Source of the DNA: Vicinamibacterales bacterium
GTDB taxonomy: Bacteria > Acidobacteriota > Vicinamibacteria > Vicinamibacterales > UBA8438
Assembly: GCA_965261285.1 (NCBI GenBank)
Contig: OZ253457.1
Span: 605,221-669,220, forward strand
Length of the DNA: 64,000 bases
Reading direction: 5' to 3'
This document shows, piece after piece, positions 2,923-48,522 of this stretch. The notes beneath the pieces are model-generated. The model was not told the origin of the DNA, did no database searches, and saw only the letters and a list, made by a program, of their open reading frames with translations. Both the position numbers and the translations under genes were made by a program. Position 1 is the first letter of the stretch. Every line of letters starts with the position of its first letter.

Positions 2923-4158
2923 ATGCTCGAGCGTGACACCCCGTCCCCGTCCCGGCGGAGCCGCCGGGGATTCCTCAAGGCCGCCGCGCTCGGGTCCGCC
3001 GCGGTCGCCCTGCCCGCGTTGCCCGTCTCCGGCCAGGAGCGCGCCGGACGGAGGCTCGGGGCGGGGGTCAGCGGCTACGGGGCCCGGTCCCGGTTCGAGG
3101 TCGCGACGCGCCGGGTGCGCGGCGCGCGCTACGACCAGGCGGCCGGCAGCCTGACCCCGCTGCAGGACCTCGACGGCGCCATCACGCCGTCGGCCCTGCA
3201 CTTCGAGCGGCACCACGCGGGCATTCCCGACATCGATCCGGCCGAGCACCGGCTGGCCATCGGCGGCCTCGTCGACCGACCGCTCGTGTTCACGATGGCC
3301 GAGCTGCGGCGTCTGCCGGCTGTCAACCGCGTGTACTTCATCGAGTGCTCGGGCAACGGCCGAGTCAAGTGGTCGCCCGCCCAGCCCGACACCGACGCCC
3401 AGGGGGCGTTCGGCATGACGAGCTGCAGCGAGTGGAGCGGCGTGCCGCTGTCGGTGCTGCTGCGCGAGGCGGGGGTCAGGCCCGAGGCCCGCTGGCTGGT
3501 GGCCGAGGGGGCCGACGCGTGCCGCATGACCCGCAGCGTGCCCCTCGACAAGGCGATGGACGACGTGCTCGTCGCCTGGGGCCAGAACGGCGAGGCCCTG
3601 CGGCCTGCCCAGGGGTACCCGCTGCGGCTGCTGATTCCGGGGTGGGAGGGCAACATCTCCATCAAGTGGCTGCGGCGGATGCAGCTCGTCGACCGCGCGT
3701 GGCAGACCCGCGAGGAGACCTCGAAGTACACCGACCTGATGCCGAACGGCGAGGCCCGGCAGTTCACCTTCGTGATGGACGCCAAGTCGGTGATCACCCG
3801 GCCGTCGGGCGGGCAGCGGCTCGACGGGCCGGGTTTTTGTCAGATCTCGGGGCTCGCGTGGTCGGGGAGAGGCCGGGTGCGGGCGGTCGAGGTTTCCACC
3901 GACGGCGGCGCGTCGTGGACGGAGGCGCAACTCCAGGATCCGGTGCTGCCGCTGGCCCACACGCGGTTCCGCCTCGACTGGCGCTGGGACGGCTCGCCCG
4001 TGACTCTCGTCTCGCGGTGCGTCGACGAGACCGGCGACCGGCAGCCGACGCGCGACGCGCTGATCGCGGCGCGGGGGCTCCGCTCGAGCTACCACAACAA
4101 CGCGCTGCAGGCCTGGCGCATCCGGGCCGACGGCGGAGTGGAGAACGTCGATGTCTGA
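2923..4158 (+). CDS. soxC: SoxC-like molybdopterin sulfite/sulfur dehydrogenase, Tat-exported
   Basis: RBS AAGGAG before ATG 2923. Tat motif SRRGFLK. TPLQDLDGAITPSALHFERHHAG, Mo-ligand IECSGNG, QGYPLRLLIPGWEG, GLAWSG. Confidence 0.9.
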   Translation: MLERDTPSPSRRSRRGFLKAAALGSAAVALPALPVSGQERAGRRLGAGVSGYGARSRFEVATRRVRGARYDQAAGSLTPLQDLDGAITPSALHFERHHAGIPDIDPAEHRLAIGGLVDRPLVFTMAELRRLPAVNRVYFIECSGNGRVKWSPAQPDTDAQGAFGMTSCSEWSGVPLSVLLREAGVRPEARWLVAEGADACRMTRSVPLDKAMDDVLVAWGQNGEALRPAQGYPLRLLIPGWEGNISIKWLRRMQLVDRAWQTREETSKYTDLMPNGEARQFTFVMDAKSVITRPSGGQRLDGPGFCQISGLAWSGRGRVRAVEVSTDGGASWTEAQLQDPVLPLAHTRFRLDWRWDGSPVTLVSRCVDETGDRQPTRDALIAARGLRSSYHNNALQAWRIRADGGVENVDV

Positions 4159-4411
4159 ACGGGCTGACGCGGCTGGCGCGACGGCGGGGCGGAGAACGCT
4201 GATGTCTGAACGGGCTGACGCGTCCGGCGCGACGGCGGGGCGGAGAACGTCGATGTCTGAACGGGCTGACGCGTCCGGCGCGACGGCGGGGTGGAGAACG
4301 TCGCCGTCTGGATGGGCTGACGCGTCCGGCGCGACGGCGGGGCGGAGAACGTCGACGTCTGGACGGGCTGACGCGTCCGGCGTGACGGCGGGGTGGAGGT
4401 CGATGTCCGGA
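4128..4411 (+). repeat. ~5.5 tandem copies of a 51-bp unit spanning the soxC stop / cytochrome start
   Basis: Unit CGACGGCGGGGCGGAGAACGTCGATGTCTGAACGGGCTGACGCGTCCGGCG starts at 4128, 4179, 4230, 4281, 4332 and 4383 (degenerate). Confidence 0.95.
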
Positions 4412-20400: not shown

Positions 20401-20929
20401 GCGCTTCGGGCCGTCGCTCGCCGCCGAACCGCTTTTCACGTGAGTGGCATCGAGCACTTCTGGAGCCCTCCCGCGCCGGCCCGGCCGCCGGGCGGGAAAC
20501 CCGGCGCATCGACGGGACGTGCGGCGCAAAAAGGCGTCCGGTCCGGGGGGCCTCGGCTCCGCACGACAGGGAGCCGGTCAGGCCGCGTCCCGTGACCTGG
20601 GACGCCAGCGTTTCGACAATGCGTTCGCGTACGTGTCCGTGAGACGTGTCCCGGGCCGCCCACGGGAACCCGCGGGGGCTGGACGCAACGAGTCTTCACC
20701 GACTCGATCCGAACCCGGCAGGTCATGGGCGGGCGCCCGGCTGCCCCGCGTTCCCCGAGCCTGCGGGGGGAGATGCGGGTCGCCGGCGCCTGTCGGATCG
20801 GAGGCAGCCTCGGCTCGTCTCGGGCCGCCGGCTGCGCTCGTCAGGTAACTCTATCACTACTTCGGCCCTCCGGAGTCAAGAGCCCCCGGCGGGGTCGCCG
20901 CGCCCGCGATCCGCCGCGGATGGTCGGCG

Positions 20930-21215
20930 CGACCGGCGATCCGGCCGGGGCATCCGTCCTCGTTCCGCCACGGAACCGCCGCCCCGCCCCGGCCATCCGA
21001 CAGCGGTCATCCTGCCCGCCTCACGACGCGAAATAGCGGTCCGATCGGCGATCCGACGGGGCAACCCGCCCGCGACCCGCCGCGCACGGCCGTCCCGCCC
21101 CGGCGATCCGACAGCGGTCATCCTGCCCGCCTTGCGGCGCGAAGTGGCCGGCCCGACGGCGATCCGACCGGGGGCGTTCCGTCCTCGCGTGCCGCCGCGA
21201 AATGGCCGGCCCGCC
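20930..21215. repeat. ~2.5 degenerate copies of a ~111-bp intergenic unit
   Basis: CCCGCCCCGGC.ATCCGACAGCGGTCATCCTGCCCGCC at 20983 and 21094. CGGCGATCCG...CCGTCCTCG at ~20934 and ~21157. Confidence 0.8.
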
Positions 21216-43751: not shown

Positions 43752-44162
43752 TCAGGAGCGACGAGCCTGCCTGCGATACGCGGGCTCGATGCCGTCGAAC
43801 ATCGGGTAGTGCCTGACGTTGAGGGTCATCAACTCCGCGTCCTCCACGGCCGCGGTGGCCGCGATGATGCCGTCAGCCAGTCCGACGCCGTGCGACCCGC
43901 CGTAGTCGCGCTTGTAGAGCCCGCCGAGCCGGGCGATGTCGTCGCTGACGGGCACGACCCTGAACAGCGAAAGCAGGCTCTTGAGCGCAGCCTGCTCGGC
44001 GCCGTCCGCGCCGCCCCTGACGCCCGCGTACAGTTCAGCGACGCCGATGGATGACACCATCATCAGGCGTTCCGAGCCCGCGGCAACGAGGGACATCGCC
44101 TCTGCCTGCCCTCGCAGGAAATCGATCAGCACGTCGGTGTCGAGCAGGATTGGTTTGGGCAC
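43752..44162 (-). CDS. vapC: VapC PIN-domain toxin
   Basis: ILLDTDVLIDFLRG, AELYAG, LADGIIAATA, TLNVRHYP. Confidence 0.93.
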   Translation of the reverse strand: MPKPILLDTDVLIDFLRGQAEAMSLVAAGSERLMMVSSIGVAELYAGVRGGADGAEQAALKSLLSLFRVVPVSDDIARLGGLYKRDYGGSHGVGLADGIIAATAAVEDAELMTLNVRHYPMFDGIEPAYRRQARRS

Positions 44163-44165
44163 GGC

Positions 44166-44399
44166 TCAATCGCGGTCCCATCCGCGACGCAACGCGTCGA
44201 GGTCGGGGAGATCCGTTCGGTCACGCCAGAGGCCGGCCGCCTCCCGGAGTATCGCCTCGCGCCGGCCGCGGCTCTTCTGCTCGATGAAGCGGTCGACGGC
44301 CTCGCGAATGATCTCGCTCTGGCGCTTGCCGCTCCGGTCGGCGATCGCGGCGACCTCGGCGCGCTGGTCCTCGGTCAGGTAGATCTGCGTGCGAACCAT
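44166..44399 (-). CDS. CopG/RHH antitoxin (VapB-like)
   Basis: MVRTQIYLT...SEIIREAVD...AAGLWRDR...LRRGWD. Confidence 0.9.
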   Translation of the reverse strand: MVRTQIYLTEDQRAEVAAIADRSGKRQSEIIREAVDRFIEQKSRGRREAILREAAGLWRDRTDLPDLDALRRGWDRD

Positions 44400-44594: not shown

Positions 44595-47282
44595 ATGAAT
44601 CCTGTCTCTCGCCGGGCGTTCCTGAAGTCGAGCGCCGCCGTCACGGCGGCGACGACCCTCCCGTCCGCCCGGGCGCGGCCCGGCGCGCAGGGCCGCCAGG
44701 CCGGTTCGCCGCCGCGAACCGCCATCACGCTGACCGTCAACGGCGTATCGCGCACCATCGACGTCGAGGATCGGTGGACGCTGGCCGAGCTGCTCCGCGA
44801 CCACCTCGACCTGACGGGGACCAAGATCGGCTGCGACCGCGGCGAGTGCGGCGCGTGCACGGTGCACCTCGACGGCGTCCCCGTCTACTCGTGCAGTCAG
44901 CTCGCGGTGTGGGCCGACGGCCGGGCCGTCGAGACGGTCGAAGGGCTCGCCGACGACGGCCGGCTGGATCCGCTGCAGGCGGCGTTCGTCGCCGGCGACG
45001 GCCCGCAGTGCGGCTTCTGCACGTCGGGCCAGTTGATGGCGGCCAAGGCGGTGGTGTCGGCCACGCCGAACCCCACCGAGGACGAGGTCCGGCAGGGCAT
45101 GGCCGGCAACCTCTGCCGCTGCTCGAACTACAACCGCTACGTGGCCGCCGTCCTCGGCCGGCCGCCCGAGCCGGCGTCGGATCGGGACCCGATGAGCGTG
45201 GTCGGCCGGAGCCGCCCTCGCATCGACGCGGTCGAGCGGGTCACCGGCGCGGCGCGCTACACCGGCGACGTCAAGCTGCCGGGGATGGCTTACGCACGGG
45301 TGCTCCGCAGCCCTCACCCCCACGCCCGCATTCGGAGCATCGACACCCGGCGGGCCCGGGAGATGCCGGGCGTCCACGCGGTGCTGACCCGCGAGAACTG
45401 CGACACTGTCTGGGGGAGCGGCGACCAGCAGAACCCGCGTTACCTGTTCAACAATCCCGTCCGGTTCGTCGGCGACCCGGTGGCCGCGGTGGCCGCCGTC
45501 GACCGCCACGCGGCCGAGGCGGCGATCCAGGCCATCGAGGTCGACTACGAGCCGCTCGACTTCGTCCTCGATCCGGAAGAGGCCCTCCGGCCTGGGGCGG
45601 TCGAGATCCAGCCCGGGGGGAACCTCTCCCGCCGGCGCGACGGCGAGGCGCTGCCCGACGTCTACCAGCGCGGCGACCTGGCCGCCGGCTTCGCCGACGC
45701 CGCGGTGGTGGTCGAGGAGACCTACGTCTCCAAGCACCACAGCAACGCCCAGATGGAGCCCCGCGCCGCCGTGGCGCAGTGGGAGGGCGACGAGCTCACG
45801 CTGTGGACGCCGACCCAGGGCATCTCGAACTGCCGCGCGGACGTGGCGCGCGATCTCGACCTGCCGCCCGAGCAGGTCCGCGTCGTCTGCGAGTACATGG
45901 GCGGCGGGTTCGGCAACAAGAACCAGTGCCAGGACGCCGACCTCATCGCGGCCCTCCTCGCCCGCGAGGCGGGGCGCCCCGTCAAGCTGGAGCTGACGCG
46001 GAAGGACGACTTCCTCGGCGTCCACGGCCGTTGGCCGACGGTGCAGCACTACAAGGTGGGGGCGGGCCGCGACGGGACGCTGCAGGCCATCGAGCTCCGC
46101 GGCGTCAGCGGCATGGGGCCGCACCGCAAGAGCAGCGGCGGCATCGCCGGCATCGAGCTGTTCCGATGCCCCAACGTGCGCCGCGAGGTCTCGCCGGCCT
46201 ACACCAACATGACCGTCGCCGCGAACTTCCGGGGCCCCGCCTATCCCCAGGGGGTCTGGGGCATCGAGTCGGTCATGGACCAGTTGGCCCACGAGCTGTC
46301 CATCGACCCCGTCGACTTCCATCTCCGGAACCTGACGCGCGCCTACAACGACGAGACGCCCTACACGAGCTGGGCGCTTCGCGAATGCGTCACCGAGGGG
46401 GCCCGCCGGTTCGATTGGCCGGCGCGGTGGCGGCGGGCCGGGGCCGCGAGCGGTCCGCGCCGGCGGGGCGTGGGGATGGCGATCGGCATGTTCGCGGCCC
46501 GCCTCGGGCGCAGCAGCGCGGTGCTGCGGCTCGAGGGCGGCCGCCTGTTCCTCCACGTGGGGGTCACCGACATCGGCACCGCGGCCAAGACCGCCATGGC
46601 CCAGTTGGCGGCCGAGGCGATGGGGATGGACCTCGCCGACGTCACCGTGGTCTGGGGAGACACCGACCGCTGCCCGTTCTCGGTGGGCGAGTCGGGGAGC
46701 CGGACGACCACCCATACCGGGCAGGCGATCGTCGAGGCGGCGGAAGATCTCAAGCGGCAGATGGCGTCGGCCGGCGGCCCCCTCGAGAGCCGCACGCTGA
46801 TCGCGCAGGCGACGCCGCGGCCGGTCCTCGACGGGCTGGCGCGGTACGCCTCGGCCGCGCACTTCGTGGAGGTCGAGGTGGACACCGAGCTGGGCGGCAT
46901 CCGGGTGCTGCAGTACCTCGCCATGCACGAGAGCGGGCGCATCGTCAACCCGCTCACGGCCGAGAGCCAGGTGAAGGGCGGGGTCACGATGGGCATCGGC
47001 ATGGCGCTCCACGAGGAGCTCATCTACGACCGCGTCACCGGCGTTCCCGTCAACCCCGGGTACTACGGGGCCCGCGTCATGACCCACCTCGACGCCCCCG
47101 ACGTCGAGGTCCGGTTCATCGAGCCGGACGACGCGTACGGACCGTACGGGGCGAAGAACGTCGGCGAGCCGCCCATCATCCCGGTGGTGGCGGCCATCGG
47201 CAACGCCGTGTTCAACGCGACCGGCCGCCGGCTGCGGGAGCTGCCGATGACCCGGGACCGGGTGCTGGAGGCACTGGCGTGA
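44595..47282 (+). CDS. Xanthine dehydrogenase/aldehyde oxidoreductase family: Tat + 2x[2Fe-2S] + molybdopterin subunit fusion
   Basis: SRRAFLK. GCDRGECGACTV, QCGFC...NLCRC. GGGFGNK, FRGP, SQVKGG, GEPP. Confidence 0.92.
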   Translation: MNPVSRRAFLKSSAAVTAATTLPSARARPGAQGRQAGSPPRTAITLTVNGVSRTIDVEDRWTLAELLRDHLDLTGTKIGCDRGECGACTVHLDGVPVYSCSQLAVWADGRAVETVEGLADDGRLDPLQAAFVAGDGPQCGFCTSGQLMAAKAVVSATPNPTEDEVRQGMAGNLCRCSNYNRYVAAVLGRPPEPASDRDPMSVVGRSRPRIDAVERVTGAARYTGDVKLPGMAYARVLRSPHPHARIRSIDTRRAREMPGVHAVLTRENCDTVWGSGDQQNPRYLFNNPVRFVGDPVAAVAAVDRHAAEAAIQAIEVDYEPLDFVLDPEEALRPGAVEIQPGGNLSRRRDGEALPDVYQRGDLAAGFADAAVVVEETYVSKHHSNAQMEPRAAVAQWEGDELTLWTPTQGISNCRADVARDLDLPPEQVRVVCEYMGGGFGNKNQCQDADLIAALLAREAGRPVKLELTRKDDFLGVHGRWPTVQHYKVGAGRDGTLQAIELRGVSGMGPHRKSSGGIAGIELFRCPNVRREVSPAYTNMTVAANFRGPAYPQGVWGIESVMDQLAHELSIDPVDFHLRNLTRAYNDETPYTSWALRECVTEGARRFDWPARWRRAGAASGPRRRGVGMAIGMFAARLGRSSAVLRLEGGRLFLHVGVTDIGTAAKTAMAQLAAEAMGMDLADVTVVWGDTDRCPFSVGESGSRTTTHTGQAIVEAAEDLKRQMASAGGPLESRTLIAQATPRPVLDGLARYASAAHFVEVEVDTELGGIRVLQYLAMHESGRIVNPLTAESQVKGGVTMGIGMALHEELIYDRVTGVPVNPGYYGARVMTHLDAPDVEVRFIEPDDAYGPYGAKNVGEPPIIPVVAAIGNAVFNATGRRLRELPMTRDRVLEALA

Positions 47283-47437
47283 GACCCTTCGCGACCGGCC
47301 GCCGGCTCCGGGAGCTTCCGATGACGCGGGACCGGGTGCTGGAGGCCTTGGCGTGAGACCCCTCGCGACCGGCCGCCGGAGCCGGGAGCTGTCGCTGACC
47401 CGCGATCGGGTGCTGGAGGCACTGGCGTGAGACCTCT
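47216..47437 (+). repeat. Three tandem 74-bp copies of the Mo-subunit 3' end / FAD-subunit start, encoding two 25-aa mini-ORFs (47279-47356, 47353-47430)
   Basis: CGCGACCGGCCGCCGG...GTGCTGGAGGC...GGCGTGAGACC at 47216, 47290, 47364. Confidence 0.95.
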
Positions 47438-48413
47438 CGCCAACGTCCGTCCGGAGAACCTGGCCGACGCCGTCGAGCGCCTGGAGCGCGGCGGAACGCG
47501 GGCGGCCGCGGTCGGCGGCGGCAGCGACCTGCTCGCCATGATCAAGGACGACCTGGTCTCGCCCGACCTGCTGGTGAACCTCGGGACGATCGCCGCGCCG
47601 GACGACCTGACCGCCATCGCATCGGGGCCGGCCGGGCTGCTCGTCGGGGGGCTGGTGACGCTGACCCGGCTGAGCACCCATCCCGAGGTGGCCTCGCGCT
47701 ACCGGGTGCTCGCGGAGGCGGCGGGGTCGGTGGGGACGCCCCAGATTCGCAACGTCGGCACCCTCGCCGGGAACCTGTGCCAGCGGCCGTGGTGCTGGTA
47801 CTACCGCCAGAAGTTCCCCTGCCACAAGCACGGCGGCAACCGCTGCTTCTCCACCACCGGCGAGAACCAGTTCAACGCCATCTTTGGCGGCGGCCCGAGC
47901 TACATCGTCCATCCGTCCGACACCGCCCCCGCCCTCGTGGCCCTCGACGCCCGTTTCCGCCTCGTCGGCCCCGGCGGAGAGCGCGTCGTCCCGGCCGGCG
48001 AGTTCTTCACGCTGCCTCGGGTCGACGTGGCGCGCGAGAACGTGCTCGAGCCGAACGAGCTGCTGGCCGCCGTCACCGTGCCGGCCGCATCCGATCTGCG
48101 GAGCGTCTATGCCAAGGTCCTCGACCGGGAAGCGTGGACCCACGCCGTCATCAGCTTGGCCTTGGCGCTGCAGATGGACGGCGACCGCGTCCGCCGCGCC
48201 CGAGTCGTGCTGGGCGGCGTCGCCCCCATACCGTGGCGGGTCCAGGCGGTCGAGGACCTGCTGGCGGGGCAGCGGGTGACCGAGCCGCTCGCGGCCGAGG
48301 CGGGGCGGCTCGCCGTCGACGGCGCCCTGCCGATGTCCAAGAACCGCTACAAGGTCCCGATGGTCGAGAACCTGGTGCGCCGGACGCTCCTCTCGCTGGG
48401 GGGCAGCGGGTGA
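47427..48413 (+). CDS. FAD-binding subunit, PaoB/YagS-like, with [4Fe-4S] insertion
   Basis: GGGSDLL, QIRNVGTLAGNLCQRPWCWYYR, CHKHGGNRC, HPSD, LGGVAPIPW, NRYK. Confidence 0.92.
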   Translation: MRPLANVRPENLADAVERLERGGTRAAAVGGGSDLLAMIKDDLVSPDLLVNLGTIAAPDDLTAIASGPAGLLVGGLVTLTRLSTHPEVASRYRVLAEAAGSVGTPQIRNVGTLAGNLCQRPWCWYYRQKFPCHKHGGNRCFSTTGENQFNAIFGGGPSYIVHPSDTAPALVALDARFRLVGPGGERVVPAGEFFTLPRVDVARENVLEPNELLAAVTVPAASDLRSVYAKVLDREAWTHAVISLALALQMDGDRVRRARVVLGGVAPIPWRVQAVEDLLAGQRVTEPLAAEAGRLAVDGALPMSKNRYKVPMVENLVRRTLLSLGGSG

Positions 48414-48522
48414 TCGTGGTGAGCGGGCGGCGCGTGGTTGCGCTGGGGCAGCGGGTGACCGTGGCGAGCGGGCAGCGCGTGGTAGCGCCGGCCGGCAGCG
48501 CGTGAGCGGTGAACGCCGATGA
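48394..48522 (+). repeat. Degenerate ~45-bp duplication of the FAD-subunit 3' end, forming overlapping mini-ORFs
   Basis: GCTGGGG(G)CAGCGGGTGA.CGTGG.GAGCGGGC.GCGCGTGGT occurs twice plus a partial third copy. ORFs 48410-48505 and 48502-48522. Confidence 0.8.

Follow-up and report, generated by a model that had tools for sequence, protein, structure and literature searches.

The window, by which we mean the whole stretch of 64,000 nucleotides that was analysed, carries on its forward strand a gene for an 895-aa Mo/Fe-S subunit of the xanthine dehydrogenase family (44595..47282) and, downstream of it, a gene for a 328-aa FAD-binding subunit (47427..48413). The 895-aa protein is composed of a TAT signal and fused 2Fe-2S and molybdopterin-binding domains (TAT_signal, Fer2, Fer2_2, Ald_Xan_dh_C, and MoCoBD_1/2 in Pfam), and the second protein of FAD_binding_5 and CO_deh_flav_C domains, which together make up the domain set of the family (Fer2/Fer2_2, Ald_Xan_dh_C, MoCoBD, and FAD_binding_5/CO_deh_flav_C); the 895-aa subunit scored under every NCBIfam equivalog cut-off and thus reached no named equivalog. 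The two genes are joined by a tandem array (47216-47440), reported by TRF with a period of 74 nt, 3.0 copies, 88% matches, no indels, and a score of 359. Unit 1 (47216..47289) comprises the final 67 nt of the Mo-subunit gene followed by the initial bases of the FAD-gene start in its copied form, unit 2 (47290..47363) is a gene-type haplotype with five synonymous differences from unit 1, and unit 3 (47364..47440) is an older, copy-type haplotype with three amino-acid changes, at the end of which 3 nt are shared with the FAD gene as microhomology. Every unit is made of the end of the one neighbouring gene and the start of the other, i.e., the GTGA junction has copied itself in tandem. All three GTG starts (47279, 47353, and 47427) overlap the preceding TGA as GTGA, the first of these TGAs being the stop of the Mo-subunit gene, and each is preceded at a distance of 7 nt by a Shine-Dalgarno-like GGAGG motif, which lies within the end of the Mo-subunit gene (47267..47271) and recurs at 47341-47345 and 47415-47419. 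Two mini-ORFs of 25 codons result, the first of which (47279..47356) starts on the Mo-subunit stop and ends on the next GTG, and the second of which (47353..47430) terminates on the FAD-subunit start. A preliminary description of this DNA had reported tandem mini-ORFs that copy the C-terminus of the Mo subunit with a 74-nt period and are chained stop-to-start as SD(GGAGG)-GTG...TGA units; TRF and the sequence bear out the period, the peptides, and the chaining at all three junctions.

The same description had asked whether the units might have been joined from different strains during assembly. A 356-nt contig from run X3 spans positions 47177-47532 and a 262-nt contig from X1, which belongs to a different sample and study, spans 47274-47535, both with 0 differences, and either X3 or X1 may be the source sample of the assembly. 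The array is therefore real and not an assembly chimera, as far as these contigs allow. The runs that carry a habitat label are sponge, coral, and marine metagenomes, and a scan of metagenomes for the duplication junction motif yielded 0 matches. In an RNA library, one 164-nt contig runs across the junction between the gene end and copy 2, with 9 differences, and may reflect DNA carry-over. The mini-ORF starts are predicted to be paired at 7/9 (unpaired probability ≤0.02), and the RNA folds no better than shuffled sequences (z -1.3, -1.07, and +0.11). Between 44300 and 49000, a scan that is weak for this organism found neither promoter-like sites nor terminator-like sites on the + strand. When the genome was searched with each unit, only short chance matches and no distant copy appeared, by which a paralog was rejected as the donor of copy 2.

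A second junction duplication (48394-48522) follows directly after the FAD-subunit gene. Its relay (48410..48522, + strand) consists of a 31-codon ORF (48410-48505) and a 6-codon ORF (48502-48522) and ends on the start codon (ATG at 48519) of a gene whose 90-aa product has no Pfam match. In one relative (L033 in G009), an unrelated insert of ~100 nt past the FAD-subunit stop interrupts this second relay. Further tandem arrays in the window lie at 4113-4398 (51 nt), 16481-16809 (175 nt), and 20925-21173 (111 nt), the first two over gene ends. On the - strand, a PIN-domain gene and a short upstream partner (43752-44399), probably a VapBC-type pair, are divergent from the dehydrogenase operon.

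The locus was found in 14 genomes of the genus, five of which contain an array and nine a single copy. Three copies are present in the genome that contains the window (G000) and in G007, four in G009, and two in G001 and G002, the range of 1-4 being one observed between genomes of the genus. The RTGA overlap occurs at this junction in all 19 ortholog rows, from which L019 and L020 had been excluded because their downstream anchor failed. Four of the array carriers form one clade; G002 groups elsewhere by both flanks, yet shares the breakpoint, a pattern that would fit either an old duplication that collapsed repeatedly or a junction that recurred or was transferred.

The array is not special to this operon but is one among dozens in its genome. 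With gene calls made by a purpose-built hexamer caller and not by a standard annotator, a tandem duplication of 25-150 nt lies across the stop codon of 83 of the 4335 genes in G000 that are 300 nt or longer, and a looser scan counted 95 duplications at stops, 43 at starts, and five at 3078 internal control points. For 79 of the 83 units no distant copy exists, and homology at the duplication junctions is small (median about 0-3 nt, mostly 0-3 nt). Samples of other genomes gave 3/127 genes for G014, 3/122 for G028, 1/231 for G005, and 1/242 for G018, none in G010 (0/124) and G030 (0/129), and none among 360 genes of seven genomes from other genera or families, in which gene calling was poorer. 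The duplication habit is thus patchy and centred on the genus and its neighbours. Loss of repair genes was rejected as its cause, the genes for the Pol I 5'-3' exonuclease, MutS, MutL, and Ku all being present with open frames. Tandem arrays of G000 lie over stop codons in 102 cases and over start codons only in 24, an approximately four-fold imbalance (random placement: 36 and 40) for which start calls are approximate and which suggests possible selection against duplication of the 5' region. One stop-spanning unit, near 179628 of G000:C1, is a member of a dispersed family (about 196 distant matches) and possibly a REP- or MITE-like element.

What distinguishes the arrays at coupled junctions is their reading frame. 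When a duplication spans an overlap of -4 or -1, a period of 2 mod 3 would give a closed mini-ORF relay, a period of 0 mod 3 would allow in-frame read-through into the next unit or gene, and a period of 1 mod 3 would lead the ribosome past the true start out of frame. In G000, the periods of coupled arrays are distributed 8/5/0 over the classes 2/0/1 and those of uncoupled arrays 30/16/24 (Fisher p=0.016); the frame-breaking period is thus found at 0 of 13 coupled junctions versus 24 of 70 elsewhere. Twelve of 15 broadly coupled arrays are intact, and of the remaining three one stops 2 nt before the start, one has no canonical first start, and in one (58-nt units) the start was not copied; the corrected broad test gave 1/15 versus 24/68 (p=0.03), looser frame counts (0/19-20 and 0/15) having been discarded on account of mini-ORF anchors, one duplicate entry, and one mis-sized array. 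In a test that took no account of repeats, RTGA-bounded gaps with a length of 20-250 nt were distributed 42/74/40 by frame versus 45/40/40 in the control (p=0.010), so that 74 of 156 RTGA-flanked gaps versus 40 of 125 control gaps lie in the relay frame. This test superseded an earlier loose search for relay chains that required no repeat evidence and had no null (182/607 candidates). The excess of relay-frame gaps did not recur in four other genomes of the genus, of which a small sample totalling 1.2 Mb was covered (12/6/9 vs 6/11/7).

The chains are also kept in relatives. An unbroken stop-to-start chain is present in 48 of 53 genomes with extra sequence at one of eight junctions, or in 40 of 45 when G000 is left out, the counts being 5/5 at the junction described here, 8/8 between an MntR-like regulator and the next gene, 3/3 between a methyltransferase and a histidine kinase, 6/7 at nqrE-nqrF, 6/6 between a BtuC-like permease and its ATPase, 9/9 and 5/5 at two more junctions, and 6/10 at the FAD-subunit/90-aa junction, where relatives carry several different inserts. 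All eight junctions were chosen for an array in G000, seven of them for an intact one; at two of them, the best 10 of 19 and the best 5 of 18 matching relatives by match span were read, and at one G013 was dropped, as it had no anchor. Compared with the at most two thirds expected from frame alone, the retention has a nominal p=0.0006, which is overstated, since the genomes are kin and not independent and the junctions were chosen from G000. The five rows counted as broken are G017 at nqrE-nqrF and G017, G028, G009, and G006 at the FAD-subunit/90-aa junction. Inserts differ in length and breakpoint, and in several genomes their middle part resembles neither gene, with start, frame, and terminal stop-start being kept. 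In G009, a +1 insertion in copy 2 has fused two units into a 50-codon ORF that still terminates on the next GTGA. At the nqrE-nqrF relay (G000:C1:141275, L245) in the operon of the Na+-translocating NADH:quinone reductase, which is present in 7 of the 21 genus genomes read, four separate +1 insertions have occurred (G000, G001, G002, and G009), and every chain still reaches the gene. At another junction (G000:3733859, L297), a 4-nt duplication just 5' of the stop fuses two normally coupled genes of G002 in frame; this fusion, which may be real or an assembly error, was not counted as a junction insert.

We consider it rather probable that the array is a stop-start junction which duplicated itself and which has survived since its 74-nt period keeps the relay to the FAD-subunit gene in frame, each copied start running in frame into the next copied stop. 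A ribosome that terminates at each TGA would re-initiate at the overlapping GTG and be handed on to the FAD-subunit gene. The 1-mod-3 class would be removed by selection, as a re-initiating ribosome would overrun the true start and starve or occlude the start of the FAD-subunit gene. From then on, constraint would act on nothing but the start, the frame, and the SD-stop/start cassette at the end, and the peptide would drift. Through unequal crossing-over and conversion, the number of copies would shift and alleles of the gene end would become mixed into them, which would enrich synonymous differences, and diverged copies could no longer collapse precisely, so that the relay would be trapped as a scar that must be kept. 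As far as excerpts of the sources cover the point, coupling is most efficient at distances of -4 to +3 nt and drops with overlap or distance (PMC12548453), and it often needs an intragenic SD (PMC6728339). The translational-coupling relay of the preliminary description gains comparative support from the frame filter in G000 and from the intact chains in relatives; taken as a selective filter, the idea of a relay is upheld. A broader picture is possible, and we offer it tentatively: in this sponge- and coral-associated lineage, continual duplication of junctions may have produced obligatory relays, tens of spacer ORFs of free sequence that ratchet in, set subunit ratios through their copy number, swap alleles with the true gene end, and seed small genes and N-terminal extensions.

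Four of the findings described above would also agree with a fully neutral VNTR, in which the FAD-subunit gene uses its own SD, the mini-ORFs are irrelevant, and the frame bias reflects codon-phase microhomology at duplication: the copy number varies from 1 to 4, the array is absent from nine of 14 genus genomes, a good SD is retained in the last unit, and a broken chain is tolerated in five relatives. A model of codon-phase microhomology indeed favours periods of 2 mod 3 (0.43 at 3 nt and 0.67 at 8 nt), and at 8 nt the mutational bias alone would cut the missing class to 0.14. With 1-3 nt of homology, however, the missing class is predicted at about 0.29-0.32, and as the homology seen is mostly 0-3 nt, it is still expected at about 0.3. 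Since neutrality also leaves unexplained why the frame outlasts later indels and the divergence of the peptide past recognition, we regard it as unlikely. Slightly less credit is due to an adaptive rheostat, in which the copy number is selected to tune the subunit ratio and each unit acts as a re-initiation step or as an extra ribosome-loading site. Relays do occur between subunits of complexes (XDH family, nqrE-nqrF, and BtuC-like permease and ATPase), and at some junctions several different inserts are found across species, but duplications at coupled junctions (13/457) are not significantly more frequent than at other gene ends (70/3878, p=0.15), and most relatives have no relay.

The sequence differences between the copies bear on the remaining explanations. 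Over 21 codons, copy 2 differs from the gene end at exactly five sites, all of them synonymous (CTG>CTC, CTG>CTT, ACC>ACG, GCA>GCC, and CTG>TTG), and copy 3 by L>S, P>S, and M>L plus two synonymous changes. The preliminary description had called the former pattern unexpected for neutral slippage and had suggested either selection on the peptide or serial capture of allelic gene ends by recombination. Five synonymous differences out of five have p=0.004 if every change is neutral and p=0.03 when changes on the gene side are limited to synonymous ones; for the genome's 36 comparable copies (five or more differences), 0.11 all-synonymous ones are expected, and copy 2 is the sole case. The pattern is therefore exact as described, but weak once the whole genome is considered. 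Two of the five differences are derived in the gene of G000, one is private, and two are common to a copy in G009 and the gene ends of other species. The five differences are in part gene-side changes and in part variants common to relatives' gene ends, which fits shuffling of units by recombination.

In the comparison of each unit with orthologous gene ends, which the preliminary description had proposed, copy 2 indeed proved nearer to those of G001, G005, and G009 (three differences) than to its own (five). This agrees with serial capture, in which each unit would be an old gene end displaced downstream when the allele of a relative came in and replaced the gene, as do the presence of all 8 shared synonymous copy variants in functional gene ends and the occurrence of the same breakpoint in G002, both of whose flanks group it with another clade. 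The copy of G002, however, bears its own clade's variants, and because two of the five differences are derived gene-side, retention of the ancestral state explains much. Of 102 copies from 74 arrays genome-wide, 15 show no difference from the end of their own gene, and pN/pS pooled over the copies is 0.59, close to the 0.5 that a comparison of a selected gene with a neutral copy should give. Capture is therefore not needed as the origin, since these 15 copies still match their own gene end, and the idea gains partial support in the form of later shuffling; as an account of how the array arose, we rate it as improbable, marginally more so than the rheostat.

Selection on the peptide, the other suggestion, was not supported. 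Three of the nine extra copies in the five genomes show no change of the peptide across the 21 codons in common, whereas six show amino-acid changes (P>R, A>V, T>A, D>N, L>S, P>S, and M>L) or a frameshift. Variants private to the nine copies, i.e., absent from gene ends, comprise 3 synonymous and 7 amino-acid changes, a ratio indistinguishable from neutral, compared with 19 synonymous and 4 amino-acid variants in gene ends (p=0.006), and pN/pS is 0.05 for gene ends and 0.27-0.33 for copies. Purifying selection, as expected for a functional small protein or leader peptide, is thus not seen: with private changes at the neutral ratio, shared ones that recur in gene ends, and one frameshift, the copies are gene-end alleles plus neutral decay. 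That the peptides are functional, for instance as mimics of the C-terminal helix of the Mo subunit, is very improbable despite the three unchanged copies, the more so as units are absent from most orthologs. A chimera of strains is more remote still, since contigs of two studies cross the array without difference and the same junction occurs in four other genomes, even though the runs contain many related strains.

Taken as a single locus, the array is a tolerated repeat. Its wider interest is that dozens of spontaneous duplications sorted by frame provide a natural, genome-wide test, in an uncultured lineage, of whether translational coupling matters in native operons. The locus also holds a warning for annotators: a chain of very small coupled ORFs whose codons look gene-like can persist purely for the sake of its frame, and an excess of synonymous changes among such copies is no proof of a functional peptide. 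In the literature covered, from which subscription papers are mostly absent, MIRUs and coupling in general were found and no report of self-duplicated junction relays.

According to excerpts of two sources, termination-reinitiation coupling at ATGA/TGATG overlaps involves a -4 overlap and an SD motif in the upstream gene end (PMC6728339, PMC12548453). The junction described here shares the stop/start overlap (GTGA), the intragenic GGAGG, and the position between subunits of one complex, and differs from ordinary coupling in that the coupled junction itself has been multiplied into a chain of filler ORFs of free sequence. Short upstream ORFs, including engineered two-cistron designs, deliver ribosomes, as an excerpt of PMC12548453 states, and the mini-ORFs may likewise serve to deliver a ribosome and not to make a peptide; unlike such designs, they lie within operons, stem from spontaneous duplication, and vary in number. 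The closest known system is the MIRU (MIRU-VNTR), which the excerpted sources describe as 40-100-bp units between operon genes with an internal ORF coupled at -4 nt, as variable in copy number and proposed to leave downstream expression intact, and as a dispersed family with 41 sites in H37Rv that is thought to insert at start codons (PMC12548453, PMC2734929). The 74-nt unit lies within this size range, is likewise located between co-oriented operon genes, has an internal ORF coupled at -4 nt to the flanking gene, and varies in copy number. In contrast to the dispersed MIRUs, it has no distant copy, as is true of 79 of the 83 units genome-wide; it is a copy of its own junction and not a mobile element foreign to the site; and for junction arrays a constraint on frame is indicated by the comparative data. 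Judged by its sequence, the array would thus work like a MIRU but is not one, because its units are not dispersed and it shows neither the dispersal nor the mobility of that family.
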